NCBI GenBank assembly: GCA_965219535.1
Contig: CBDCNV010000001.1
Location: forward strand, 720,001 to 752,000
DNA from: Opitutales bacterium
GTDB taxonomy: Bacteria; Verrucomicrobiota; Verrucomicrobiia; Opitutales; PNEW01
Length of the DNA stretch: 32,000 nt
Reading direction: 5' to 3'
Shown piece after piece: positions 52-22,794 of the stretch (its first letter is position 1; the number at the start of each line of letters is the position of its first letter). The notes beneath the pieces were generated by a model. The model saw only the letters and a list, made by a program, of their open reading frames with translations. It searched no databases and was not told where the DNA came from. The translations under genes were made by a program, and so were the position numbers.

Positions 52-612
52 CTACTCGGTCGTTTCAGAAGGGACCTCCGCTGTCGCCGCTTCTTGATCT
101 TCAAAGGCTGAAATAGACTCAGGTGTAGGAAAGGGTGCGGTGGGCCAATCCTGTGGCGGTACCCAGGGAGACTCATTTTCCCCAATTTCGTCAGGTCTCC
201 CTGGAGGTAGTATACCATCGGCTCTCGCCTTGGTGTAAATATAGAGATCGGTAATTTGTTTATCATCGAGCAGGACATTCCATGCCTGCATCCCTTTTTT
301 CGGTCTTCCTTCTCGAACGGTATGGAGGTATTCCTCGTAACTTAAAACCTTGATGGAATCCCTCAGATTGACCGCTATTGTGCTTCCAAGCGCATCGAGC
401 CCGTGACAGCGGTAACAATAAACATGCCACCATTTCCAACCACTGTAGATGCGCTTATATACTTCATCAGGTGCGGGCATAGTGGCATTATTCGCAGCAT
501 CCTTATCTTGAGCGAAAGCAATCCCCGCCCATAGAGCAGATGTAATGTAAATTAATCCGCACACTGGGATCCACCTTGTATAGCTGTTACCGCTTTTGAC
601 CTTAAATGCCAT
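52..612 (-). CDS. xoxG: Periplasmic mono-haem c-type cytochrome, XoxG-like (likely electron acceptor of XoxF)
   Basis: 186-aa ORF with a hydrophobic signal-like N-terminus (IPVCGLIYITSALWAGIAFA) and a single CxxCH haem motif (CYRCH). The segment YIYTKARADGILPPGRP fits methanol-metabolism cytochromes. It starts 20 nt after the xoxJ-like stop and is co-oriented with xoxF. Confidence 0.75.
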   Translation of the reverse strand: MAFKVKSGNSYTRWIPVCGLIYITSALWAGIAFAQDKDAANNATMPAPDEVYKRIYSGWKWWHVYCYRCHGLDALGSTIAVNLRDSIKVLSYEEYLHTVREGRPKKGMQAWNVLLDDKQITDLYIYTKARADGILPPGRPDEIGENESPWVPPQDWPTAPFPTPESISAFEDQEAATAEVPSETTE

Positions 613-632: not shown

Positions 633-1457
633 TTAGTTAATCGGGATAAGCGGTACTCCATAATCTTCCAGGATCTTTTTAATTTCAACGTGCTTTCTTA
701 CCAGGATCTCTTCCAATTGTGCTTTGAACACATGTTCTCCATGTCTGACCCCCATGCATATCTCATACGTGAATGGCAGATCATTTTCACCTGATGGAAC
801 AGGGACTATCTTTAGTGGTGTCTTTTGTGCCTTGGCAAAATATCCACCAATCGGCCCCCATACGACGGCGACATCAATATCCCCTTTTACCACCGCATCA
901 ATTATCGTGCTTGGAGGGTTGTTTTCAGAGTAAAAGGTATCATACCCGACCACATTTTCTACTATTCCTCTTCGCCCTAATTCATGAACTGGAGGTGGAT
1001 TCATGTAGTCGTTGCCTAGTAAATGGACGCCGATTTTTAAATCCTTCAGAATGGGGTCATCCAAGGTATTAATCTCATATCCTTTGCCTTCAGGATATAC
1101 AAATACGTAGCTCGATCGGTAGTAAGGCTTAGTCCAGCTGACCAAATCATAACCTTTGGGTACTCCCATCACGACGTCGCATCGCGCTTCCTTGAGTGTG
1201 GCCTTCATCGTGTTCCTGATGAAACCTCTTCTTTGTCCCCACCAGACATAACTGGGGGTGGTTCCCAGTTCTTTAGCTATTAAATCCGCAATCTTATTCT
1301 CAAAGCCTTCTAATTGTTTGTTAGACAATGGGAAGTTCATAGAGTCTGCGCCAACTCTAAACGAGACAACTTCATCGCTACTCAGGGTATTGGCCGGTAT
1401 TAAAATAGGGTAGAAGAGAAGGATTAACGCGCTAATACTGAAAATTCTAATAACCAT
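633..1457 (-). CDS. xoxJ: Quinoprotein-dehydrogenase-associated periplasmic substrate-binding-like protein (XoxJ/MxaJ family)
   Basis: 274-aa ORF with a signal peptide. Motifs FRVGADSMNFPLSN, EGFENKIADLIAKELG, WGQRRGFIRNTM, CDVVMGVP, KPYYRSSYVFV and DVAVVWGPIGGYFAK match my recollection of the MoxJ/XoxJ SBP family. It lies between xoxF and xoxG. Confidence 0.8.
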   Translation of the reverse strand: MVIRIFSISALILLFYPILIPANTLSSDEVVSFRVGADSMNFPLSNKQLEGFENKIADLIAKELGTTPSYVWWGQRRGFIRNTMKATLKEARCDVVMGVPKGYDLVSWTKPYYRSSYVFVYPEGKGYEINTLDDPILKDLKIGVHLLGNDYMNPPPVHELGRRGIVENVVGYDTFYSENNPPSTIIDAVVKGDIDVAVVWGPIGGYFAKAQKTPLKIVPVPSGENDLPFTYEICMGVRHGEHVFKAQLEEILVRKHVEIKKILEDYGVPLIPIN

Positions 1458-1666: not shown

Positions 1667-3397
1667 TTAAAGCGAAAATACAGTGAGAACACCGCCGAGG
1701 TTGCTGATACCTTCTACATCAGCGAACGCACCTAGTGCTCCAAGCCCTGCAGTGGGATCCTCACCACCTATTCCCGCGGCGGCTCCGATCCCAGCCCATC
1801 CGCCAACACCTGAGAGAATAGCTACATACTGCTTGCCGTTGCGTTTGTAGGTAATGGGATTTCCGATAATACCTGATGGCGTCTTATACTTCCACAAGAC
1901 TTTGCCTGTTTTGGCGTGGACTGCTTTAAACCAGCCTTCCATAGTTCCGTAGAATACGACGTCAGTAGCGGTTACAAGACTTCCGCCCCAGGCGGCCAAA
2001 TTCTCTTTGATGCCCCATACTTTTTCACCTTTTACCGCATCCCAGGCAATGAACTCGCCGCGATTGCCGCCGGGTCCCGGAAACATGCGGACGATAGCAC
2101 CAACATAGGGTTGCCCCGCTTGGTACTTAACTTCGACACCTTCATAATCATTGCCGACATTGTTTGTTGGCACGTAAAAGAGACCCGTTTTTGGGGAGTA
2201 GGAAGCCGGTTGTTGATTCTTGCCTCCCATCGCGCCGGGAAATATGTTCTTTGTGTTTCTCATCGAAGAAGTCCGCTTCTTCGGATCTTCGATCGGTCGA
2301 CCGGTTTTCATGTTTACACCGGTTGCCCAATTAACATGCACGAATGGCTTCGCTACCAGTAACTCTCCCGTGTCGCGGTCTATCGTGTAACCGAAGCCAT
2401 TGCGGTCAAAGTTTACCAGTACTTTTCTTGTTACTTCATCAAACTCTAGTTCGGCGAGAATGTTTTCGTTCACTCCGTCGTAGTCCCATGCATCGTGAGG
2501 TGTTTTCTGGTAAGCCCACTTGGCAATTCCTGTATCGGGATCACGTGCAAAAATCGTCATCGACCACTTGTTGTCACCGGGACGCTGGTCGGGATTCCAG
2601 CTACCGGGGTTTCCCGTGCCGTAGTAAAGTAAATCCATCTTCGGATCGTAGGTGTACCAACCCCAGGTAGTGCCACCCCCTCTTTTCCATTCATCACCTT
2701 TCCATGTCTCTACGGATCCGGGAAAGCCGACTTCTTCCTCCGGCCCCGTGCTATACATACGCCATACTTGCTCACCCGTATTGATATCATTGGCGGTGAC
2801 AAATCCACGAACACCGAACTCACCACCACTGATGCCCGTGATCACCTTATCTTTTACTACGAGGGGTGCTCCTGTTATGGTCATTCCTTGACGGAAATCA
2901 CCTTGCTTAACTTTCCAAATTTCATTCCCCGTTGCAGCATCTAAGGCGACCACATGGGTGTCCAATTGGGTAAGAAAAATTTTGCCCTCTGCGTAGGCAA
3001 CCCCGCGGTTTACCGTGTCACAGCATGCGACGGGGATTACTTCTTCATTTTGTTTCGGCTTATATCTCCATTTGATGGGCGCGCCCTCTTTATTTAAATC
3101 CAAAGCGTAAACAATATTTGGAAAGGGGGTGTGAACGTACATCGTGTCGCCAACTACCAGCGGTGCCCCTTCGTGTCCGCGCAATACTCCGGTCGAAAAC
3201 GACCAGACGGGTTTCAGTTTTTTGACCGTCCAGGCATTAATTTGATCGAGTGTACTATAACGGGTGCCGGCATAATCCTTGCCCGGTAAGGCCCATTGGG
3301 TGTCATCTTCTTGAAGTGCAAGTAACTCGTCATTAGCCCGGGTGATGACCGGCAGAGCGATTGTAACGATCATTAAAACTACGCATATCCTCTTCAT
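1667..3397 (-). CDS. xoxF: PQQ-dependent methanol dehydrogenase, lanthanide-dependent XoxF type
   Basis: 576-aa ORF with a signal peptide followed by NDELLALQEDDTQWALPGKDYAGTRYS. It has the vicinal Cys pair (PVACCDTVNRG) and the motif HDAWDYDGVNE, whose Asp two residues after the catalytic Asp marks Ln-dependent enzymes. The C-terminus (GVGGWAGIG...VFSL) is typical. A GAGAGGA ribosome-binding site precedes the ATG. xoxJ and xoxG lie downstream. Confidence 0.9.
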   Translation of the reverse strand: MKRICVVLMIVTIALPVITRANDELLALQEDDTQWALPGKDYAGTRYSTLDQINAWTVKKLKPVWSFSTGVLRGHEGAPLVVGDTMYVHTPFPNIVYALDLNKEGAPIKWRYKPKQNEEVIPVACCDTVNRGVAYAEGKIFLTQLDTHVVALDAATGNEIWKVKQGDFRQGMTITGAPLVVKDKVITGISGGEFGVRGFVTANDINTGEQVWRMYSTGPEEEVGFPGSVETWKGDEWKRGGGTTWGWYTYDPKMDLLYYGTGNPGSWNPDQRPGDNKWSMTIFARDPDTGIAKWAYQKTPHDAWDYDGVNENILAELEFDEVTRKVLVNFDRNGFGYTIDRDTGELLVAKPFVHVNWATGVNMKTGRPIEDPKKRTSSMRNTKNIFPGAMGGKNQQPASYSPKTGLFYVPTNNVGNDYEGVEVKYQAGQPYVGAIVRMFPGPGGNRGEFIAWDAVKGEKVWGIKENLAAWGGSLVTATDVVFYGTMEGWFKAVHAKTGKVLWKYKTPSGIIGNPITYKRNGKQYVAILSGVGGWAGIGAAAGIGGEDPTAGLGALGAFADVEGISNLGGVLTVFSL

Positions 3398-3598
3398 TTT
3401 ATTCCTCTCTTCTTATTTATTTATAAACTTTTTCATCTAAAAGCGGGATTAGTTAACTGTTTTGCTTGAGCCTTTATACTGTCAAGAAAATTCAAGCTTT
3501 TTCAGCGTGTAAAATGAATCCCCCTATCTTTACTAGTCATTCATTATTAAAAACTTAGCTTTGCGTTATGAGCGTAGAGGGTCTTTCACTTCTCGAAA

Positions 3599-5698
3599 TT
3601 ACAGGCGCCAGCGCAATCCCACCGTGGCCATGATCGGTGCGCCAATCGATATGAGACCATTCGACGCTTTTCCGGTTTCAAATTCGGTATCCAAAAAATT
3701 CTCAATTGAAGCAAACCCTTCTATTTTTTTGTTAAATTTATAAGAAACGTAAAAATCTAAAACCGTGTAGTCTTCAAGTTCCAGGGTATTGAGATCGTTT
3801 TCATACTGGCTGCTGGTGTAACGGAGCTGCAGACTGTTTGTCCACTTCGGAATAGGGTTCCAGGTCAATGAGAGATTCATCATGTGTTTCGGTGACTGCG
3901 CCAGGCGATTATTTTCCAGCCCCAACTGAACCGGGCTCTCTGTGATTTCCGAGTCACTGTAGAGGTAACTCGCGGATAACCGCCACTTCTCATTGGGTTT
4001 CCATGAAGCATCCAGCTCGAGTCCGCCGACGCGAACCTGGCCGAGATTGTGCCGCTGGCGACAGGTACCTCCATTGGGGACGAAGCCACAGGGATCAACC
4101 GGACCCGGGCCGAAACCCAGCGTGACGTTGGCAATGGCATCATCGAGGTAATTCAGGAAATACGTCAGACGGAAAACAAAGTCGTCATTTGGCTGAAACT
4201 CTATCCCAGCCTCTCCACCATATAAACGCTCCCGTTCAAGCTGCGGATTCGCTTCAGTAATATCGACGCGTACACGGAACGGGCGATAAAATTCGTTGAG
4301 CGTGGGTGCGCGAAATCCCGTGTAAAGTGCACCGCGGGCGCGCAGTTGATCATTGAAAAGGTAATTCGCGCCGAGGCGAAAATTCCCCACCCATTCATTG
4401 CGATCCAGAAATTGATCGTCGCGAAGAATCTCTCCATTCACCAGATTAGTTTCTTTTCTCCTCCCATTTTCAAGGCTCCAGTAATCGGCGCGCCCGCCAA
4501 AGACCAGGTTGAGTGCGGGGGATACTTCCCAGACATCTTCAAGAAAGAAACCGACTAAGGTCTGTTCGCCGCCGGCATTTCTTTCACGGTTAAAAAATGT
4601 ATCGGTAAAAAAGTATCGTTCATTCGTTGCCCCCTCTACTTTACGGGCGTCCACACCGGCTATAAGTTGGTGTCCTTTTACTGTCTTCAGATTTATTACC
4701 GCGTTCGCACCCCAGGCTTCAGCGGGAACATCGAATTGTTCAAGGGCGGGGTTTTCTGAATCGCGATCCGCGTTTACCGATGTGAACAGATTGCGAAAAT
4801 CACGATTTTGATAATAGACCTGTGCCTGCCATGAAGTATCATTGCTCTGGCTTGAGCCGTTTAGACTAATGCTCGCATCGTATGCTTCAGAATCATTGGC
4901 GGCGAGAGGTGTTCCATTGCCACGCTCTTCATTGAAATAAGACGCATTGAAAACAAGGGTGTTATTATCCGTCAAGCGCCAGCGAATACCGCCTTTGATT
5001 AACTCTGCTTCAGAAAAAGCGTCTCTATCAATTGGCCCTCTTTGATCCGCGCGCAAGACGGGATAGCCGTCTGTTGAAAATCTGTTCGCCGTAATGAAGA
5101 CATCGAGGTCATCAGAGGATTTCTGAGTGACAAGGCTGATATCTGAAGTCCCCCTGTTTCCCCCTGAGGCTTCGATAAGTGCAAAGTCTTTTTCCGGTTT
5201 TCGTGAGAACAAGTGAATCACCCCACCGAGTGCTGCGTTTCCCCACGGTCCGGCGCCGCCACCACGCATCATTTCAACGCCCTCAACGCTGCTTACCGGT
5301 AGGCGGTTCCAGTATACCCAGCCCCCAAATGGATCATTGAGCGGTATTCCGTCAAGTAAGACTAATGTTCTTCCCGCTCCATTGGGACCAAGATTGCGCA
5401 AACTAACACCCTGGGTCGTCGGATGCGCAACTCGGCTGCTGCTTCTTCGAAAAAGGCTGAAACCGGGGATGCTTCTTAAAGCGTCATCCAATCGACGCTG
5501 AGGGGCAGTTTCAATAAAGTTGCGTTCGAGAAATTTATCATCGAAAGGGTTTTCCCATTGATCCATCGAGTAGCGACGACCGATGACCTTTAATTCGGAT
5601 ATATTGACAATCTCCGACTGGCAAAAAAGAGGAGTGAGAACCAGGGCTATTAAGAAATAAACTAACCTACTTACAAGTTTGAGTAGGAATAATTGCAT
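3599..5698 (-). CDS. TonB-dependent outer-membrane receptor, substrate unknown
   Basis: The maximal ORF runs to 5746. The ATG at 5698 (MQLFLLKLVSRLVYFLIALVLTPLF) gives a more plausible signal peptide. Plug-domain motifs are present (FSLFRRSS..., GVSLRNLGPNGAGRTLVLLDGIPLNDPFGGWVYWN, MRGGG). A long beta-barrel-like, Gly/Asn/Tyr-rich region follows, with a FRAPTLNEFY motif. The last residue is Leu rather than the usual aromatic. Confidence 0.85.
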   Translation of the reverse strand: MQLFLLKLVSRLVYFLIALVLTPLFCQSEIVNISELKVIGRRYSMDQWENPFDDKFLERNFIETAPQRRLDDALRSIPGFSLFRRSSSRVAHPTTQGVSLRNLGPNGAGRTLVLLDGIPLNDPFGGWVYWNRLPVSSVEGVEMMRGGGAGPWGNAALGGVIHLFSRKPEKDFALIEASGGNRGTSDISLVTQKSSDDLDVFITANRFSTDGYPVLRADQRGPIDRDAFSEAELIKGGIRWRLTDNNTLVFNASYFNEERGNGTPLAANDSEAYDASISLNGSSQSNDTSWQAQVYYQNRDFRNLFTSVNADRDSENPALEQFDVPAEAWGANAVINLKTVKGHQLIAGVDARKVEGATNERYFFTDTFFNRERNAGGEQTLVGFFLEDVWEVSPALNLVFGGRADYWSLENGRRKETNLVNGEILRDDQFLDRNEWVGNFRLGANYLFNDQLRARGALYTGFRAPTLNEFYRPFRVRVDITEANPQLERERLYGGEAGIEFQPNDDFVFRLTYFLNYLDDAIANVTLGFGPGPVDPCGFVPNGGTCRQRHNLGQVRVGGLELDASWKPNEKWRLSASYLYSDSEITESPVQLGLENNRLAQSPKHMMNLSLTWNPIPKWTNSLQLRYTSSQYENDLNTLELEDYTVLDFYVSYKFNKKIEGFASIENFLDTEFETGKASNGLISIGAPIMATVGLRWRL

Positions 5699-5910
5699 GA
5701 TGTGTGACATTCGCAAATATTTGAACAAGGGAACTATAAACATCATTTGAAGTGAAAATGTAAAGATTATCCAATAACTGCAGTTGAAGCATGGACCACT
5801 GCCAACCGATCTCCATGATAAACTTGATAAATTAGGTAAAGTATTTCCGGGGCTTTACGGTAGTGATTATTAATTGAATAAAAAAGTGACATTCAGCCTA
5901 TTATTCATGT

Positions 5911-6498
5911 ATGAATTCAGTTATGAATTTCATTGATCAGGTAATGGAGCTGTTCGCTAAGTACGGCGATAGGGTCTATCTTGGAGAAGCGGTCACTCAG
6001 AGGGAACATGCCTTGCAAGCCGCGACACTTGCGGAAAAGCGAAATGGATCGGCAAGCCAAATAGCTGCAGCTCTGCTACACGACATTGGACATATAATAA
6101 ATGCTTCCGAGTCGGACGCGGCGGAAAGTTTATATGCTGATAATGCTGATGACCTCCACGAAGTGATTGGATATCGCTGGTTAAGCGCGCACTTTGGCCC
6201 GGAAGTTTCCGATCCGGTAAGGCTTCATGTTCCCGCAAAACGCTATCTTTGCGCCGTTGATGAGGATTATATTAATGTATTGTCCAAAACTTCCGTAAGA
6301 AGCCTGCATGACCAGGGCGGGCCCATGTCCTCAGACGAGGTGAAAGCGTTCGAGTCGGAACCTTATGCCACCGATGCCGTAGCGGTTAGACGTTGGGACG
6401 ATGGAGCAAAAGTGCCCAATCTGGAAACCCCTGACCTCACACATTTTCGTGCCTACCTCGAGACTGCTTTCAACAATTCTTCTCATAGCAGTGAATAG
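5911..6498 (+). CDS. HD-domain protein, PhnZ-like (phosphonate-degradation-associated HD/diiron oxygenase family)
   Basis: 195-aa ORF. The N-terminal pattern YGDRVYLGEAVTQREHALQAATLAEK...AAALLHDIGH carries the HD motif and resembles PhnZ-type HD proteins. No phnY-like gene is adjacent. Confidence 0.55.
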   Translation: MNSVMNFIDQVMELFAKYGDRVYLGEAVTQREHALQAATLAEKRNGSASQIAAALLHDIGHIINASESDAAESLYADNADDLHEVIGYRWLSAHFGPEVSDPVRLHVPAKRYLCAVDEDYINVLSKTSVRSLHDQGGPMSSDEVKAFESEPYATDAVAVRRWDDGAKVPNLETPDLTHFRAYLETAFNNSSHSSE

Positions 6499-6534
6499 TA
6501 ATACTGTAACTAAACAAAATAGTAAGAAACCATC

Positions 6535-6807
6535 ATGCCTAAATATGTAATTGAACGTGAAATCCCGAATGCGGGAGCATTATCAGCTCAGGAATTGAAA
6601 GAAATATCTCAGAAATCTTGTGGTGTTCTAAACGACATGGGACCCCAAATCCAGTGGCTTCAAAGCTACGTGACAGATGACAAAGTCTACTGTGTCTATA
6701 TCGCGCCGGATGAGGCTGCGGTTCGCGAGCACGCAGAACGCGGTGGTTTTCCTGCCGACAGTGTTTCAGTGATTAGGTCCGTCATTGATCCAACAACTGC
6801 CGAATAG
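6535..6807 (+). CDS. DUF4242-family small protein
   Basis: 90-aa ORF. MPKYVIEREIPNAG...QWLQSYVTDDKVYCVYIAPDEAAVREHAERGGFPADSV matches the DUF4242 pattern as I remember it. Confidence 0.65.
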   Translation: MPKYVIEREIPNAGALSAQELKEISQKSCGVLNDMGPQIQWLQSYVTDDKVYCVYIAPDEAAVREHAERGGFPADSVSVIRSVIDPTTAE

Positions 6808-6823: not shown

Positions 6824-8060
6824 AAAGACTGTCCATTGCTTGTTGATACAAAGCCAGCTGGGCGCGGATATAATTGGCAAGGTCGTAATCCTTTTCAGCG
6901 GAAGCCAGCGTGACAGCTTTTTCCGCGTACCCTACAGCTTTTTCGTATTCGCCGGCCGCAGAGTAAATGGTAGCCAGGGTATTAAGGATCATTGCGTTAT
7001 TGTAACCGGAAATTATAGAAGCGCGCTCGGCGAGTTGTATAGCAGTTTTGACATCGCGTATTTCCGGGTCCGGGTGTGTGGCCAGAATATATGCCATCCC
7101 GCTCAAGGGCCCGATCATGTTTTTGTTTGCGACCTGTCGAAAATGCCCGAGCGCTTCTGTAAGTTTGCCCTGTGAGTTGAGGACGTTTCCAAGATTGGCG
7201 TGCGCCTGATCGAAATCGGGCTGGGATTTCAGTGCCTGACGGAAATGTGTGATCGCGTCATCCAGCTTTCCTAACGATACATAAACAAGGGCAAGATTAT
7301 TGTGTGTTTGTGCATCGTCTGGTTCCAGCTCTAACGCATGCTGATAGTGAGCGATCGCCAACTCAGGCTTGCCCTGCTTCGTATGGGCATTCGCCAGGTT
7401 GTTATAGGCTTCACGGTATTCGGGATCGAGTTCTATTGCTTGAGTAAAATGAGCGATCGCCTCGTCCTCTCTGCCACTTCTATTAAGGATAACACCCAAA
7501 TTGTTGTGCGCTTGAGCGTAATCGGGATCACTCTTTAACGCCTGCTCCAGGTGAGAGACAGCTTTATCCAGCTTACCCTGTGACTTCAAAGCGATCGCCA
7601 GGTTGTTGTGCGCTTGAGAGTAGTCGGGATCGATCATCAATGCCTGTTGAAAGTGGGTGATTGCTGCCTCAACTCGTCCCTGTGAATTAAGGGCTGTAGC
7701 TAAATCGTTATGGGCTTGGCTATACTCGGGATCTATTGCCAGCGCCCGACTTAAATGATCGATCGCTTCATTTATATTTCCTTCTGACTCGAAGGTAATG
7801 CCGAGAAAATAGTGTGTTTTACTGGAATCTGGATTTAATTCTAATGATCGCTGAAGCACCGCGACTCCCTTCTCAATCTGACCCCGGTTTACCAGGCGCT
7901 CACCTTTTATTGCTAGTGAGTGGGCGTCAATCGTCTCGGTGGATACCGTCTGCTTTAATTGATGAACGCCGATGGACATCATTACGATTAACGGGGTGAG
8001 CCCAATGACTACCGCGATAACCGTGAGGAGAATGCTATTTGATCGTTTTGATTCTGACAT
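6822..8060 (-). CDS. Membrane-anchored tetratricopeptide (TPR) repeat protein
   Basis: 412-aa ORF with an N-terminal TM helix (ILLTVIAVVIGLTPLIVMMSIGV). At least seven consecutive 34-aa TPR units follow, with a recurring D-P-D/E-Y-x-Q-A-H-N-N-L-A...G-K-L-D-x-A-I-x-H-F-x-Q-A-L pattern (residues about 47-312). Confidence 0.9.
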   Translation of the reverse strand: MSESKRSNSILLTVIAVVIGLTPLIVMMSIGVHQLKQTVSTETIDAHSLAIKGERLVNRGQIEKGVAVLQRSLELNPDSSKTHYFLGITFESEGNINEAIDHLSRALAIDPEYSQAHNDLATALNSQGRVEAAITHFQQALMIDPDYSQAHNNLAIALKSQGKLDKAVSHLEQALKSDPDYAQAHNNLGVILNRSGREDEAIAHFTQAIELDPEYREAYNNLANAHTKQGKPELAIAHYQHALELEPDDAQTHNNLALVYVSLGKLDDAITHFRQALKSQPDFDQAHANLGNVLNSQGKLTEALGHFRQVANKNMIGPLSGMAYILATHPDPEIRDVKTAIQLAERASIISGYNNAMILNTLATIYSAAGEYEKAVGYAEKAVTLASAEKDYDLANYIRAQLALYQQAMDSL

Positions 8061-8103
8061 CGAGGTGGATTCTATTTACCAGCTCCTGTTAATATATTTA
8101 TCG

Positions 8104-9183
8104 CTAACGAACCTGGCCCTTTCTAACTGACCAGATAAATCCATCGTACCAAAAATGCATAATTGAGACGACGAGCAATATCGAAGCCATCGTTCGGGTC
8201 GATAGCTGCAGGGTATCCAAATATATTGTATGCCAGATACCAAAACTGATACCGGTCAATATGAAAATAGATAATGCGATCTGTCGTCCACCCCGATACT
8301 GACTTAGGCGAAAAAACGAAGTAATGTTTTTCTGCTCCATGTGCCAGACGATAAAAAAATACTGCCAGGCGTGAAAAAAGTTCATCACAAAGAATGCTTC
8401 ACCAAATGAATTGAATCCCCAGCAAGTAATCGAGACGAGAGCGAGAATGGCGTAAAGAAATACCTTTTGATAGGAGACCTTGTAGCCTCGTTGGCTGAGT
8501 CTCCAGTATGCGTAGAAATAATAAATAAAAAAGAACATACACAGGGTAAGAATGCTGTATGTGAGGAATTGACTGTACTCACCGGTAGCTGGGACCCACT
8601 CAAAAAATGGTTTCTCAAGATCAAGATACTGCTCCAACTGTTCTTGATTAATCATCAAATGAGAAACCAGGGACACTCCGGCCAGGATGGGTCCGGTATA
8701 GAGTATTATATTAAGAACCCAATCGAGACGTCTGCCCATCAGCGCATCGTTGCCTTTTCTGGCGTCATAAATACGTCCAATACCAAAGGTCTGTAGGCTC
8801 GAATGATAAACATCCCACCAGATGCCAATAACTGCAACTATTGCCAGCAGCCATACCGAAAAGCTGACGGCCGCGAATAGCGCGAGCGGAACTATTGTGA
8901 AGCGCCACTTGTAGAGTTTGAATATTTTGGGATTCAGGTGACTGCGGAAAAATACGATAAATAAATGTGAAAAGATGATGACATTGATAAAAGCAATCGC
9001 TAATGATTTATCATCGATCGAGGTGACGCCTTCCGTTAAGGGAAAGGACAGCAGGGGACTCGTCTTGAAAGGGATAAATACCAGTATCGCTACGAGTGGT
9101 GCCGCAATCAGGAATATCGTGTCTCTTATTGGACCCGCAATGTAACTACTCGACGTTTTATTCACAGATTGAGCCATGCCCAA
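8104..9183 (-). CDS. Polytopic inner-membrane protein of unknown function (about 9-10 predicted TM helices)
   Basis: 359-aa ORF, strongly hydrophobic throughout. His/aromatic motifs sit in or near TM segments: FSHLFIVFFRSH, WWDVYHSSLQTFGIGRIYD, FFHAWQYFFIVWH, MHFWYDGFIWSVRK. It lies 43 nt upstream of the TPR gene and is co-oriented with it. I do not recognise the family. Confidence 0.6.
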   Translation of the reverse strand: MGMAQSVNKTSSSYIAGPIRDTIFLIAAPLVAILVFIPFKTSPLLSFPLTEGVTSIDDKSLAIAFINVIIFSHLFIVFFRSHLNPKIFKLYKWRFTIVPLALFAAVSFSVWLLAIVAVIGIWWDVYHSSLQTFGIGRIYDARKGNDALMGRRLDWVLNIILYTGPILAGVSLVSHLMINQEQLEQYLDLEKPFFEWVPATGEYSQFLTYSILTLCMFFFIYYFYAYWRLSQRGYKVSYQKVFLYAILALVSITCWGFNSFGEAFFVMNFFHAWQYFFIVWHMEQKNITSFFRLSQYRGGRQIALSIFILTGISFGIWHTIYLDTLQLSTRTMASILLVVSIMHFWYDGFIWSVRKGQVR

Positions 9184-11534: not shown

Positions 11535-12209
11535 CTATTCGTTTAATCCCAATGCCTGGAGGTAATCTTCCCCGTCATCCCATTTCTTGAAGATTGCTTC
11601 TTCTTCATCCAGGACTTCACGCGCTGCTGTGATCACCGCTGGTGCATCCTTAACCGGGCAAAAAACAATACCGTCAACATCGGCAACAACCAGCTCGCCC
11701 GGTTGGGCAATCACACCACCGATGCTAACTGCTATTTCCGCTTCTGCGCCGACATAACCTTCGGGTAATTTGGGGATGACAAAGGAGTCGGCTGAGATGG
11801 TGCGATGAAACATTTGCATCCCCTGCTTAGTTACATCGACAATGTCGCGGATCGGACCATCAATGATCACACCCGTAAGTCCAGCGTGAACAAATGATCT
11901 GCTCGCTCCTCCGCCAAAGGGTGAACGTAGACCAAGTCGAGACTCGGCTACAAGAACAGGTGAAGCTGCTGTCTTTGCCTGCTTGAATGCATTGGCAAAC
12001 GCATATTCACGGGGGGGTGTCGGTTCTTCAGGAAAAAAATCTAGCAGTAGGGTTACAACCGTGCCCGCGATGCTTTTGTTCGGAATCAGGGGACGTAGTG
12101 AAGGATCGACTATTCGAGGGGGCAATCCCAGTCTCTGCATGCCGTCGGCAATAAAGGGTGATCCCAATTTACGAAAGATTTCAATGATTTCTTCAACCGT
12201 CATTTCCAT
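11535..12209 (-). CDS. RraA-family protein (RraA / HMG-CHA aldolase / oxaloacetate decarboxylase-like fold)
   Basis: 224-aa ORF. GGGASRSFVHAGLTGVIIDGPIRDIVDV and VSIGGVIAQPGELVVADVDGIVFCP fit RraA-like family motifs. Confidence 0.7.
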   Translation of the reverse strand: MEMTVEEIIEIFRKLGSPFIADGMQRLGLPPRIVDPSLRPLIPNKSIAGTVVTLLLDFFPEEPTPPREYAFANAFKQAKTAASPVLVAESRLGLRSPFGGGASRSFVHAGLTGVIIDGPIRDIVDVTKQGMQMFHRTISADSFVIPKLPEGYVGAEAEIAVSIGGVIAQPGELVVADVDGIVFCPVKDAPAVITAAREVLDEEEAIFKKWDDGEDYLQALGLNE

Positions 12210-12360
12210 TTATTTTCTATATCACTATTAGTCCTTCCAGAAGACAAGCGCAATGTTGCTATAAGGTGGATAAGTCTAACAGCTGATGGATTGAGGAATC
12301 TTTAGGGTTGTGAACTTGGATTGACATCTTTAATCCCTGCTTAAACTTTACACAACTGAT

Positions 12361-13257
12361 ATGAGTGATAACGGAGGCGGAAAAGGAAAAAGTGGAATAG
12401 CAGTTTATGCCCTGTCCGATATTCACTTGGATAACGAGGGCAATAAACCGTGGTTTCAAAAACTTTTAAACGATAATTATGCCGACGACACACTCATCCT
12501 CGCCGGTGATGTAAGCGACGACCTAGAACTGCTCAGGGAAACTTTAACCGCACTCCGCGGTTTGTTTAACGAGGTCTTTTTTGTGCCGGGCAATCATGAA
12601 TTGTGGATTAACCGAAGTGATTGTGATGATTCATTGAAGAAATTCTGGCAGATTATAGATCTGTGCAATTCACTGAATGTTAATACCCGCCCGGCAAAAG
12701 TTGGCGGCGGGGAAAATGGAAAAGGTGTCTGGATATTACCGCTTTTTTCCTGGTACCGGAAACCTGAAGAAAGTGATAAGAGCTTATATCATGAAAAACA
12801 AGGAGATGATCCGACTTTGGAAATGTGGTGCGATACCCATTATGTGAAGTGGCCTTCTTTCAAAGAACAGGGTTCAGCGGCAGAGTACTTTCTTCATCTC
12901 AATGAAAAACAGGTCCCATCGAGTTTCGATGCCCCGGTAATTTCTTTCAGTCATTTTTTGCCTCGAAGGGACCTTATATTCAGCACGCAGGAGGAAAGAA
13001 AAATGAACGGGGTGATATTAAAAGATCCTCACCCGGCTTTTAATTTCAGCCGGGTCGCTGGGTGTTCAGGTCTGGAAGAACAAATAAGAAAGTTTGGCTC
13101 GATCATTCATGTCTATGGTCATCAGCATCGCAATAGGCACCGCATGGTCGATGACATACTTTATATCTCACATTGTCTCGGATCACCTTTGGAAAGACAA
13201 AATCATCTGCTCGGAGGAGATATGAAGGGCCCCAAATTAATTTGGGAGGAAAAGTAA
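12361..13257 (+). CDS. Calcineurin-like metallophosphoesterase
   Basis: 298-aa ORF with the ordered phosphoesterase motifs SDIHLD, ILAGDVSD, PGNHE, SHFLP and YGHQH. Confidence 0.8.
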   Translation: MSDNGGGKGKSGIAVYALSDIHLDNEGNKPWFQKLLNDNYADDTLILAGDVSDDLELLRETLTALRGLFNEVFFVPGNHELWINRSDCDDSLKKFWQIIDLCNSLNVNTRPAKVGGGENGKGVWILPLFSWYRKPEESDKSLYHEKQGDDPTLEMWCDTHYVKWPSFKEQGSAAEYFLHLNEKQVPSSFDAPVISFSHFLPRRDLIFSTQEERKMNGVILKDPHPAFNFSRVAGCSGLEEQIRKFGSIIHVYGHQHRNRHRMVDDILYISHCLGSPLERQNHLLGGDMKGPKLIWEEK

Positions 13258-13382
13258 AATGCTTTTTTTAGATTTACCGTAAGGGGTATGACAGAAGCCT
13301 AAAGCTTACGCATTTGCCTTTTAAGAGGTTTAATATTATAAAAAACGAGTTATTTTCTAATATTTATCAAAGTCGGGCGTTA

Positions 13383-13400
13383 TTACCCTTATAAGAGTAA
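13383..13400. promoter_or_regulatory. 18-nt imperfect palindrome upstream of the DUF4139-like array (possible operator)
   Basis: ttacccttataagagtaa pairs at 8 of 9 positions about its centre and ends 35 nt upstream of the ATG at 13435. I noticed no second copy. Confidence 0.2.
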
Positions 13401-13434
13401 TTTTTAAGCTACTGATAATTTAACATTTTTTATC

Positions 13435-14802
13435 ATGATTAAACGAACGAGTAAGAGCATTTACGGGGTTGTGCGGGTCCTGGTTCTATTATGTTTTATT
13501 GCCGGCATCGCCGAGGCGATGGTGGATCTGGTAACACTGCCCAACCGGGAGAGTGTGCAGTTGACGATCTATAACTCCGCGGACTTGACCCTGGCGCAGG
13601 AAAAAAGAGGCCTGACCTTATTGGAGGGGATGAATGAGCTGCAGTTTTCCTGGGCGAATACACTTATCGATCCTACGAGTTTAGAAATGCTCCCACAAAA
13701 GAATGCCGGATCGATTGATATCTTTGATCTGACCTTTCCGCCGCGGGTGAGAAACCTTGGGTTGTGGAATATCAAAAGCGGAATGAGCGGGAAGGTACCG
13801 GTAGAGATCAGCTATTTAACGAGCGGACTTTCGTGGAGAGCATTTTATTTAGGTACCCTGACTACGGATGAGAAGGAGATGAGACTCAAGGGGTACGTGC
13901 GGGTGACAAATAACAGTGGAGAGGACTACGAGAACGCGCAAGTGAGGTTAATCGTAGGGAAGGTGCACCTTATCGACCAGATAGCTCAGTTGGCACAGCA
14001 GCAGTATCCTTACGGTCGACCGGGTTATGAAATTTACGGTGGAGCAGTTGCGCCTCAAAAGGCTTCAGGAAATAAAATGATGCGAATGATGAATGCCGCG
14101 GCAATGGACGCCTCTGTAGCCATGGAACAGGCCCCAAAGCAAGTCGTTAAAGAGGGTTTGAGTGAGTATTTTCTCTACACCATAGAGGGGACGGAAACGA
14201 TCCCCAATGGCTGGTCAAAACGACTGCCGAGCTTTGATACGGCAGGTGTGCCGGTGGTCAATCTCTACAAGTACGAAGAGGAGCGGTATGGCAGGGGAGT
14301 CTTGCGGTTTTTAAGTTTCAAGAATGATGAAGAACATAAATTGGGCGAGACGCCCATCCCGGGAGGGATGATCAAGGTCTTCCGCTCGGTGAATAAAGAA
14401 AAGAACCTGAGCTATGAGGGACAGTCAAATTTCAAATACATCCCGGTAGAAGAAGATGTGGAATTAAACCTCGGAGCGGTGCAGACCGTGGTCGTGGAGC
14501 CGACCCTCATGGAGTATCACACGGAGAACTACCGCTTTGACCGTTGGGAGAACATCAGCGGCTGGGATGAAGTGAGAGATTTTAAAGTAGAGATCAAGAA
14601 TACAAGGGAGATACCTATAAAAGTGGAAATACAGAGAAACTTTAATACCACCTATTGGAAGATAAAGAACAGTGGAGAGTTTGGGAAGTATGAGAAATTG
14701 GATGTCGACACCGTGAAATATACCCTGGAACTGGGGCCGAAGTCACAGAAGACATTGAATTATGTCCTGACAACCTTTCACGGCACGCGAGCAGAAATTT
14801 AA
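13435..14802 (+). CDS. Secreted/periplasmic DUF4140-DUF4139 (MuiA-like, TIGR02231-like) protein, paralogue A with a Met-rich central cassette
   Basis: 455-aa ORF with a signal peptide ending AEA. The N-terminal block (VQLTIYNSADLTLAQEKRGLTLLEGMNELQFSWANTLIDPTSLEM) fits the DUF4140 pattern. The C-terminal block (YFLYTIEG..TIPNGWSKRL..., LRFLSFKNDE..LGETPIPGGMIKVF..., ELNLGAVQTVVV, EIKNTREIPIKVEIQ...YTLELGPKSQKTLNYVL) fits DUF4139. The family call is from memory of the consensus, not a search. Confidence 0.7.
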   Translation: MIKRTSKSIYGVVRVLVLLCFIAGIAEAMVDLVTLPNRESVQLTIYNSADLTLAQEKRGLTLLEGMNELQFSWANTLIDPTSLEMLPQKNAGSIDIFDLTFPPRVRNLGLWNIKSGMSGKVPVEISYLTSGLSWRAFYLGTLTTDEKEMRLKGYVRVTNNSGEDYENAQVRLIVGKVHLIDQIAQLAQQQYPYGRPGYEIYGGAVAPQKASGNKMMRMMNAAAMDASVAMEQAPKQVVKEGLSEYFLYTIEGTETIPNGWSKRLPSFDTAGVPVVNLYKYEEERYGRGVLRFLSFKNDEEHKLGETPIPGGMIKVFRSVNKEKNLSYEGQSNFKYIPVEEDVELNLGAVQTVVVEPTLMEYHTENYRFDRWENISGWDEVRDFKVEIKNTREIPIKVEIQRNFNTTYWKIKNSGEFGKYEKLDVDTVKYTLELGPKSQKTLNYVLTTFHGTRAEI

Positions 14803-20754: not shown

Positions 20755-21405
20755 TTAAAGATCGAAGAGATTTTGGTAACGGTTTTTTCCTAATAAAGAG
20801 AGAAACAATTTTACCAGAATTAAATCAATCTTACTGACGCTATTCGTTATCGGATTTCCTTTTGTAGCGCTATCACCCTTTTTGGGAATTCCCGACGACG
20901 GGTCTGAGTAGAGGGTAATGCTTGTTTTTTTGTGATGATTGTAATTTTGTAAAAATTCGTGTGCCCTTACCTCGTCTAACTTCAAGAAGCGGGCAAGCGC
21001 TAAAACACTCTGTTCTGGTTTGGTTATTAAATCATCATATTTAATAAGCAGTTTGGGTTCTTCCCATTCGTCATAGATGTTCAGTATCTTGATATATTCC
21101 CAGAGAGCCTTAAGTGAAAAGTTGCCGATTTGTCGCCGTATTACTATAGTAGGTGAACGTGTTAACAAGATAAGGTTGTTACCCTCTCGAAAATCAATGT
21201 CATCTCCATGGCTTTTGTATAAAACAGGAGGAGCGTCTGGAGTGACATGATTTAAAGGATTTTCTGCGAGGGTGTTCTTGAAAAGTGGAATATCTCCGGG
21301 ATTGGAAAGGCAGCCCATGGTTGGTCTGCTGGATATATATTCTGCAATATATCGTACCCAGCTGTTGCCGCTTCGGGGGTAGGAAAGTAAATAGGTTTTC
21401 ATCAA
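20755..21405 (-). CDS. Sulfotransferase-family protein (PAPS-dependent)
   Basis: 216-aa ORF with a 5'-PSB-loop-like SYPRSGNSWVRY, YKSHG, a 3'-PB-like LILLTRSP, and the common sulfotransferase tail block IKYDDLITKPEQSVLALARFLKL. Confidence 0.7.
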   Translation of the reverse strand: MMKTYLLSYPRSGNSWVRYIAEYISSRPTMGCLSNPGDIPLFKNTLAENPLNHVTPDAPPVLYKSHGDDIDFREGNNLILLTRSPTIVIRRQIGNFSLKALWEYIKILNIYDEWEEPKLLIKYDDLITKPEQSVLALARFLKLDEVRAHEFLQNYNHHKKTSITLYSDPSSGIPKKGDSATKGNPITNSVSKIDLILVKLFLSLLGKNRYQNLFDL

Positions 21406-21669
21406 GCTTTTTTATCGAGAAGAAAATTCCTGATTTTAAAATATAACCATTCCGGAAATAATAGAAATTTATTTTTCTCTTAAGTCAGTCAATATTACCC
21501 ATCGCACTAGTGTTTACCTCTGATTTTTTTGTCTGCTGAAATTGTAAGAAATTCAGATGCAATGATTACCAGCTGCCCTCAAGCTTGGTGAAAGCGATCC
21601 CTATCTGTCCTGATCATCCAGCAGAAGGTCTTCTTAGAATTTCAATAAGATCATAAAATTCTATTACCT

Positions 21670-22794
21670 TCAGGATTGCTGAGGTGAATCCTGGTCCAAT
21701 CCCACATTGAGCGGCCGCTTGGGATCGCCCGCAAGATAGAGCGTCTGGGTGGGGAAGGCGAATTCAATACCCTCCTCATTAAAACGGCGGAAGACTTCCT
21801 TGTTGAATTTTTCTGTAAATTCCAGGTAGGCAAAGAAGTCAGGCGGGTGATACCAGTATAAAACAATTATATTTAATGAAGCGTCATTAAATTCATTAAA
21901 GAATACACGGGGTGGTTTTTCTTCGTTCATCCCCTCGTGGTTATCCAGAAGCTCTTTGAGTATATCGATTGCACGATCCAGTTTTTCTGACGAGGTGTCA
22001 TAGGTGACGGTTATATTGGCGACACGCTTGATAAAAGGACGTTTGCCAATGTTCTTAATAAATTTATTCGCCAGTTCACCATTGGGAATGGTTACAAGAT
22101 GACCATCCAGGGTGCGAATTTTCGTCGAGCGCAAGCCTACATCTTCGACCGGTCCGTCAAAACCGTCGACGACTATCCTGTCACCCAGCTCGAATGGTTT
22201 ATCCGTGAAAATTATAAGCGACCCAAAAAAGTTTTTCAGCGAATCCTGGGCGGCGAGGGCGATCGCCAAACTACCTATGCCCAGACCCGCGATAATCGAG
22301 GTAATGGGTTTGTCACTTAATATCTGGGCGATCTGCACTAAAACCAGAATAACAATCGTTATGCGCAGGCACCGGCGCACCACCGGAACCATCATGTCGT
22401 CCAGTTTGCTATCACTCTTTTCCGCCAGACGTGCGAGTAAGGCGTGAGGAACATCGACTAACCAGTAAATGGCGTAACCGAAGGAGACGACGAGGAGCAG
22501 GTCAGCGAGGGTGACTAATAATTCATGTATTCCTTCACTCAGGACTAAGATCGGAATTCCAAGGGATATGCCGAAGGCTGCAGCAAGTAAGATTACCGCG
22601 CGTGCGACGGCATTCACAGCTGCCGCGGCCATGGGCCTGTCCTGCGCTTCGAATTTTTGGGCTATTCTAAGTAAGATGAATTTGGCAAACCTTCCGATAG
22701 CCAGGGCAATCAGGAGCATAATGAAAAGAGCGGCAATACGCCAAAGCTCGTTCTCAGCAAATTTTATCTCAGTAAATTCTGTCCAAAAATCCAT
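21670..22794 (-). CDS. Small-conductance mechanosensitive channel (MscS family)
   Basis: 374-aa ORF with N-terminal TM helices. The MscS core is present: AQDSLKNFFGSLIIFTDKPFELGDRIVVDGFDGPVEDVGLRSTKIRTLDGHLVTIPNGELAN. Confidence 0.88.
   Translation of the reverse strand: MDFWTEFTEIKFAENELWRIAALFIMLLIALAIGRFAKFILLRIAQKFEAQDRPMAAAAVNAVARAVILLAAAFGISLGIPILVLSEGIHELLVTLADLLLVVSFGYAIYWLVDVPHALLARLAEKSDSKLDDMMVPVVRRCLRITIVILVLVQIAQILSDKPITSIIAGLGIGSLAIALAAQDSLKNFFGSLIIFTDKPFELGDRIVVDGFDGPVEDVGLRSTKIRTLDGHLVTIPNGELANKFIKNIGKRPFIKRVANITVTYDTSSEKLDRAIDILKELLDNHEGMNEEKPPRVFFNEFNDASLNIIVLYWYHPPDFFAYLEFTEKFNKEVFRRFNEEGIEFAFPTQTLYLAGDPKRPLNVGLDQDSPQQS

Follow-up and report, generated by a model that had tools for sequence, protein, structure and literature searches.

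What does a TonB-dependent receptor bring into a bacterial cell when its gene stands directly upstream of xoxF, the gene for the lanthanide-type methanol dehydrogenase that carries pyrroloquinoline quinone (PQQ) as its cofactor? The question is raised by a 32,000-nucleotide stretch of DNA from an Opitutales bacterium (Verrucomicrobiota; assembly GCA_965219535.1, contig CBDCNV010000001.1, positions 720,001 to 752,000; hereafter ‘the window’), in which such a receptor gene precedes xoxF, xoxJ and xoxG. An earlier sequence-only reading of the window had put the receptor forward as a candidate for lanthanide acquisition. The analysis described here strongly supports a functional tie of the receptor to xoxF, assigns the receptor to a widespread and so far uncharacterised branch of TonB-dependent transporters that is linked to PQQ enzymes, and favours a different cargo: the receptor has about an even chance of being a transporter of PQQ itself, either free or carrying a metal, for periplasmic PQQ enzymes. 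The genes on which the argument turns are the following (the last two lie outside the window).

3599-5746, minus strand: TonB-dependent receptor gene, an open reading frame of 715 amino acids with plug and barrel domains and a predicted structure
1667-3397, minus strand: xoxF, lanthanide-type PQQ methanol dehydrogenase, 576 amino acids (TIGR03075, PQQ methanol/ethanol family, 717 bits)
633-1457, minus strand: xoxJ, periplasmic binding-protein-like partner (TIGR03871, 286.8 bits, above cut-off)
52-612, minus strand: xoxG, c-type cytochrome (profile matches)
G000:C1:718696-719949, same strand: Peripla_BP_6 binding protein, weakly similar to TIGR03863 (123 bits; cut-off 414)
G000:C1:717705-718709, same strand: TIGR03866 / YncE-like propeller (357 bits against a cut-off of 287)

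The identity of the two principal proteins is straightforward. The receptor matches the Plug domain (PF07715, 54.6 bits) and the TonB-dependent barrel (PF00593, 167 bits), and an AlphaFold2 model made with 25 homologues (mean predicted local distance difference test score 85.6) shows a plug, followed by long beta-hairpins, with the plug seated inside a beta-barrel. Domain scores and model together thus assign the protein to the TonB-dependent transporter superfamily, which is defined by a plug domain inside a barrel of 22 strands. Compared with solved transporters of this kind (BtuB, FyuA, FecA and PqqU), the model aligned over 530-600 residues with Z scores of 34-41; because fold searches score all TonB-dependent transporters alike, these values assign no cargo, and a lookup in the ESM Atlas returned generic names only. 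The xoxF product, for its part, has the XoxF structures 6oc5, 4mae and 6dam as its closest solved relatives, and bears the motif WDYDGVNE, that is, the D-Y-D arrangement with the extra aspartate of lanthanide enzymes.

The first issue is whether the neighborhood of the two genes means anything. The arrangement originally described, of a receptor of some 700 residues ending about 200 nucleotides upstream of a co-oriented xoxF, was borne out (715 amino acids, a spacer of 201 nucleotides, both genes on the minus strand), and forms part of a unit of six same-strand genes: receptor, xoxF, xoxJ, xoxG, binding protein and propeller, the last belonging to a family (TIGR03866) of propellers associated with PQQ-dependent catabolism. 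Since the genome (4.47 Mb in 2 contigs, 94.5% complete) encodes only about 11 such receptors and 2 PQQ alcohol dehydrogenases, and since their adjacency is conserved, it exceeds what chance would provide. The synteny check that had been proposed for relatives came out in favor of the linkage: on metagenome contigs whose receptors are 79-91% identical to that of the window the whole order is kept, with genes for a DUF4242 protein and a PhnZ-like protein and, divergently from them, receptor, xoxF, xoxJ, xoxG, binding protein and propeller. At 48-50% identity (L001 and L116) the receptor gene is found at the opposite end, in the order xoxF, xoxJ, xoxG, binding protein, propeller, receptor; in Chthoniobacterales-like genomes it precedes xoxF-xoxJ (with a gap of 204 nucleotides in L004); and a soil clade, at 36% identity, has the receptor and xoxF as divergent neighbors. 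Because the linkage recurs in such rearranged forms, it speaks for a functional tie rather than an inherited gene order, and this link between receptor and xoxF is strongly supported.

If the receptor serves XoxF, the next issue is which of the enzyme's requirements it supplies, and here the genome's own capacity to make PQQ is informative. Two PQQ alcohol dehydrogenases with the D-x-D motif and two enzymes of the GSDH type are encoded, while no PqqC and no PqqE were found over cut-off in the genome (best scores of 77 bits against 240, and 123 bits against 381, respectively). The weak matches proved to be a CADD folate protein encoded beside folP/folK and an AhbD-like radical S-adenosylmethionine enzyme, and were rejected. 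Lacking pqqC and pqqE, yet carrying four genes for PQQ enzymes, the organism must scavenge PQQ. The known PQQ importer of Escherichia coli, PqqU, has no equivalog in the genome: a genome-wide search of receptors gave at most 51 bits, the cut-off being 1200. The other gene for a PQQ alcohol dehydrogenase (L207, G000:C2:1344000-1360000, at 6990-8675; motif D-W-D) is followed by genes for a dihaem-type cytochrome and a galactonate dehydratase, and no receptor gene is nearby.

The distribution of the receptor family across genomes also bears on the cargo. The family was found in Verrucomicrobiota, Acidobacteriota, Methylomirabilota, Latescibacterota, Myxococcota and some Alphaproteobacteria; among 77 genomes that bear it, PqqC is present in 4 (and absent from 73), whereas GSDH-type enzymes are present in 57. 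Like PqqU, therefore, the family occurs in bacteria that possess PQQ enzymes and mostly lack PQQ synthesis. In a sample of 301 Verrucomicrobiota genomes (at least 85% complete), 27 carry the family, 5 carry PqqC and 8 carry an alcohol dehydrogenase. The five with both dehydrogenase and PqqC, which are methanotroph-like and of 2.2-2.5 Mb (one, G209, with three copies of pmoA), all lack the receptor, and the three with a dehydrogenase but without PqqC all possess it; GSDH-type enzymes occur in 24 of the 27 family carriers, as against 47 of about 274 other genomes. A sample of 126 Acidobacteriota genomes (family in 34, PqqC in 9, dehydrogenase in 30) behaves similarly, with the receptor in 24 of 30 dehydrogenase carriers and in 10 of the 96 others; among the carriers it is present in 20 of 21 without PqqC and in 4 of 9 with it, or 4 of 8 if the unpublished genome G675, one of those nine and without the receptor, is left out. 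When dehydrogenase-bearing genomes of both phyla are pooled, the receptor is found in 23 of 24 without PqqC versus 4 of 14 with it (Fisher p = 2e-5, a value that overstates the case, and to that extent detracts from it, because the test ignores kinship). The direction of this pattern fits an importer of PQQ; an importer of metal would not be expected to depend on pqqC.

Two genomes encountered in these comparisons deserve separate mention. G697, an acidobacterial genome of 3.9 Mb in a single contig and the sole exception among the 21, contains at least 10 PQQ alcohol dehydrogenase genes and neither PqqC nor the receptor. The cultured alphaproteobacterium Azospirillum sp. RU38E (G009; loci L217 and L219) carries a pair of neighboring XoxF-like genes (809 and 762 bits) together with a receptor of the family, and lacks PqqC.

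The company kept by the family as a whole extends beyond XoxF. A clustering of neighbors at 80 genome loci returned as the commonest not XoxF but the six-bladed, GSDH-type PQQ dehydrogenase (PF07995), often fused to a cytochrome c. Among 181 loci that encode a full-length member (79 of them under 9 kb; divergent GSDH queries added), a gene of the GSDH type lay within 6 kb at 52 loci, and one for a PQQ alcohol dehydrogenase at 14. On a FastTree phylogeny of 139 non-redundant receptors, those linked to dehydrogenases are dispersed (11 rows requiring at least 8 changes), and the well-supported clade of 38 rows that holds the window receptor includes 6 members linked to alcohol dehydrogenases and 10 linked to GSDH-type enzymes. 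A family linked to two unrelated periplasmic enzyme folds is most simply explained by a cargo that both share, which narrows the choice to PQQ or a metal. Two further features of individual loci were recorded: in a member of the Latescibacterota (L010:12014-20710), five tandem GSDH-type paralogues lie directly downstream of the family receptor, with a distant PQQ propeller at 20755-21843, and in Thermoanaerobaculia / ‘Multivorans’ (L017, L019, L022 and L025, at about 11900-13700) the gene for topoisomerase VI subunit B comes directly after the receptor.

The recurrence of that linkage also bears on the suggestion that the receptor imports an unrelated nutrient (an iron-siderophore, haem, cobalamin or copper) and merely sits beside PQQ enzyme genes, for instance supplying the cytochromes c that partner these enzymes. 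Iron, copper and cobalamin were the alternatives that the sequence-only reading had listed; PQQ was missing from that list. Generic haem, siderophore and B12 receptor subfamilies are indeed the best NCBIfam matches of the protein, BtuB and FyuA give its highest structural Z scores, and homologues are labelled in the sources as cobalamin or Fe receptors. However, the scores themselves fall far below the respective cut-offs (133.8 bits against 316.85 for haem, TIGR01785; 123.7 against 223.5 for siderophores, TIGR01783; 110.5 against 599.7 for BtuB, TIGR01779). Equally, the earlier remark that neither a cobalamin riboswitch nor a Fur box is visible by the receptor start stands: Rfam gave no family at its gathering threshold across the window and none even at E<=1 within 3300-6000, and a search for a Fur box, allowing up to 3 mismatches, found none, although the pattern used is that of E. 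coli and may not be the one that applies in this phylum. On these grounds the receptor was rejected both as a BtuB and as a member of a known siderophore or haem subfamily. Linkage to two PQQ enzyme folds, recurring in rearranged form at 66 of 181 loci, would moreover be unexpected of a general iron or B12 receptor, and an unrelated cargo is unlikely.

The more serious competitor is the original proposal, namely that the receptor imports a lanthanide or lanthanophore for XoxF and is a functional analogue of LutH or LanA drawn from a different receptor family. Its functional premise, a tie to xoxF, is the part that holds; lanthanide as the cargo is less well supported than PQQ, and is to be regarded as a possible but doubtful alternative. 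Part of what speaks for it weighs, at the same time, against import of PQQ. Both XoxF and the second PQQ dehydrogenase of the genome carry the lanthanide aspartate, and the D-x-D motif is present in 11 of the 12 alcohol dehydrogenases that adjoin family members. The binding protein and propeller that end the module (the former a match below its cut-off) are presumably akin to periplasmic proteins of the Lut and Ped clusters, which affect the use of lanthanides, the lut cluster pairing such proteins with LutH. As no PqqU-like or LutH-like receptor is found elsewhere in the genome, some other receptor must import the metal. Finally, a 2026 preprint predicts that many or most six-bladed PQQ enzymes also bind lanthanides, so that the association with GSDH-type genes does not decide between PQQ and metal.

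Against a lanthanide cargo stands, above all, the way in which the family tracks the absence of pqqC: it is missing from all five PQQ-making, strictly lanthanide-dependent methanotroph genomes and from five of the nine PqqC-positive Acidobacteriota. The enzymes beside it also include exceptions, since the twelfth adjoining alcohol dehydrogenase (at L032) is of the calcium type (D-F-T), and in Myxococcus sp. 1LA the receptor occurs together with GSDH enzymes but without any eight-bladed PQQ dehydrogenase. Searches of the xox module revealed no ABC (ATP-binding cassette) ATPase, permease or EF-hand protein, and neither lanmodulin, ABC membrane parts nor a small partner of 120 amino acids is encoded near the receptor. 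The propeller, by comparison, fits either cargo, because E. coli pqqU itself adjoins the YncE propeller gene, much as the module of the window holds a YncE-like propeller.

Nor, as judged by stand-ins, does the receptor appear to resemble the receptors for which a lanthanide role has been described. LutH of Methylorubrum extorquens AM1/PA1 (PMC7391723, PMC12482762), which belongs to a lut cluster with LutA and LutB, is likewise TonB-dependent, genetically tied to XoxF function, and clustered with periplasmic binding-type and exported proteins. In contrast to the window receptor, however, the LutH cluster has lanmodulin and ABC membrane components, and LutH-type receptors are reported to be PqqU-like in sequence and to neighbor pqq genes. 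The PqqU-like receptors of a verrucomicrobial methanotroph (L211 and L212) and of Alphaproteobacteria (L192-L197), which stood in for LutH and whose likeness to it is taken from the literature, gave no or marginal tblastn matches to the window protein; such receptors belong to the cluster that, according to the 2026 preprint, contains the characterised lanthanide receptors. The family thus differs from both PqqU and these proxies, and occurs mostly where pqqC is missing, unlike the LutH type near pqq genes. In 20-kb contexts of PqqU matches from 251 alphaproteobacterial genomes, neither an EF-hand protein resembling lanmodulin nor a clear lut cluster could be seen. LanA of Methylotuvimicrobium buryatense 5GB1C, another TonB-dependent receptor, is described as necessary for the lanthanide switch and is reported to be largely confined to Gammaproteobacteria, whereas the present family spans several phyla. 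From these indirect comparisons, orthology to LutH or LanA appears unlikely. A published parallel comes from Voutsinos et al. (2024, PMC10875860, Fig. 5), who draw xoxF3 clusters of Acidobacteria and Gemmatimonadetes in which xoxF, xoxG/J, a YncE-like propeller and cytochrome oxidase genes are accompanied by a TonB receptor to which no cargo is given; the clusters are of the same kind, the receptors being likened by the figure only.

The comparison with PqqU is where import of PQQ meets its principal difficulties. PqqU (YncD of E. coli; PDB 6v81 and 9c4o; PMC12124388), a TonB-dependent importer of PQQ, shares superfamily and overall fold with the receptor, and was the top Foldseek match of the model (E 4e-36), if only by a marginal lead; the structural Z scores (41 for BtuB and FyuA, 35-37 for PqqU) reduce this to a generic likeness. 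Sequence identity to E. coli PqqU is only 23%, at which level the register of strands in any residue alignment is uncertain. With that reserve, both BLASTP and hhalign aligned PqqU Arg304 with Arg328, which is invariant in the receptor family, set the aromatic Tyr99 of PqqU into a 3-residue deletion of the family, and paired PqqU Arg365 with Asp382 of the receptor. Having one of the three signature residues (Tyr/Phe/Trp99, Arg304 and Arg365; PMC12124388), and scoring 60.6 bits against a cut-off of 1200 on the PqqU equivalog NF041535, the receptor was rejected as a member of PqqU; because only Arg304 is kept, the published signature (PMC12124388) would not call it a PQQ transporter. The distribution has weaknesses of its own: most Verrucomicrobiota lack pqqC anyway, and in four Acidobacteriota the receptor occurs alongside pqqC. 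What was observed, furthermore, is the fold, the conserved association with xoxFJG, the lack of pqqC and pqqE and the distribution of the family; from these the cargo and the manner of its hand-over are deduced. Accordingly worded, the proposal is that the receptor may be a functional analogue of E. coli PqqU from outside the PqqU family, in a family much commoner in these phyla (34 of 126 Acidobacteriota and 27 of 301 Verrucomicrobiota) than the published PqqU counts (17 and 5 genomes).

Were the receptor indeed to import PQQ, the pathway could be pictured as follows. A bacterium auxotrophic for PQQ would capture, at its cell surface, PQQ released by other microbes; energy delivered through TonB would open the plug and allow the cofactor to enter the periplasm; and there it would be loaded into apo-XoxF and into the other PQQ dehydrogenases of the genome, possibly with the assistance of XoxJ, the binding protein and the YncE-like propeller. 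A more specific and unlikely version holds that the imported PQQ already bears a lanthanide ion, in which case one step would supply both cofactors of XoxF. This version would account for the association of the family both with missing pqq genes and with enzymes of the lanthanide type, and, if it were true, PQQ from other microbes would serve PQQ auxotrophs as a lanthanophore. A literature search for PQQ uptake in Opitutales or Methylomirabilis found nothing.

Several smaller features surround the receptor gene and may bear on its expression and processing.

5747-5774, minus strand: conserved block of 28 nucleotides directly upstream of the receptor start codon (alignment of relatives at 79-91% identity)
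5576-5599, minus strand: codons for SELKVIGR, which resembles a TonB box and follows a hydrophobic stretch like that of a signal peptide (translation read by eye)
3398-3598, minus strand: spacer of 201 nucleotides between the receptor gene and xoxF (alignment), in which no terminator-like site was found
3464-3497, no strand assigned: inverted repeat GCTTGA-N22-TCAAGC within that spacer, its core nearly invariant in four relatives

The true start of the receptor may be Met17, at 5698, giving a protein of 699 amino acids, because relatives of 699 amino acids begin at the equivalent position. The motif SELKVIGR, on a reading by eye only, aligns with the N-terminal consensus of the receptor family, L-x4-VTAxR. 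Upstream of the gene a single weak sigma-70-like site was seen (5927-5900). The inverted repeat of the spacer may be an operator or a promoter element of xoxF; it occurs once in the whole 4.47-Mb genome, so that no regulon can be derived from it. In two metatranscriptome libraries, contigs of 90-99% likeness account for most of xoxF but, in the receptor gene, for two short stretches; none of them spans the junction between the two genes, and carry-over of DNA is possible.

The genes to either side of the module were also recorded. Beyond the binding protein and propeller lies a gene for a PhyH-type dioxygenase. On the other side, divergent from the receptor, positions 5911-6807 of the window encode a PhnZ-like HD oxygenase (TIGR03276, 214.5 bits, at cut-off) and a DUF4242 / SCO4226-like protein, and this pair also adjoins the receptor in the relatives of 79-91% identity (L112, L114 and L115), in one of which an insertion of about 2 kb separates the PhnZ-like and receptor genes (L115:5906-8001). 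Neither phnY nor a phosphonate transporter is found near the PhnZ-like gene.

What the family means for the organisms that carry it depends in part on the cargo. In soil and sea alike, enzymes of the XoxF type rank among the most abundant alcohol dehydrogenases, and many of their carriers among the Acidobacteriota, Verrucomicrobiota and Methylomirabilota cannot make PQQ. The published survey of PqqU (PMC12124388) found that transporter in few members of the phyla concerned and left the source of their cofactor open. The receptor family described here is present in about a quarter of the sampled Acidobacteriota and in nearly all of the sampled dehydrogenase carriers that are auxotrophic for PQQ; if it imports PQQ, it would constitute a second, non-orthologous system of PQQ uptake and would fill that gap. 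If, instead, the cargo is a metal, the family would represent a new class of lanthanide receptor outside the LutH and LanA types. Under either cargo, the receptor upstream of xoxF points to cross-feeding of cofactors in marine and soil communities.

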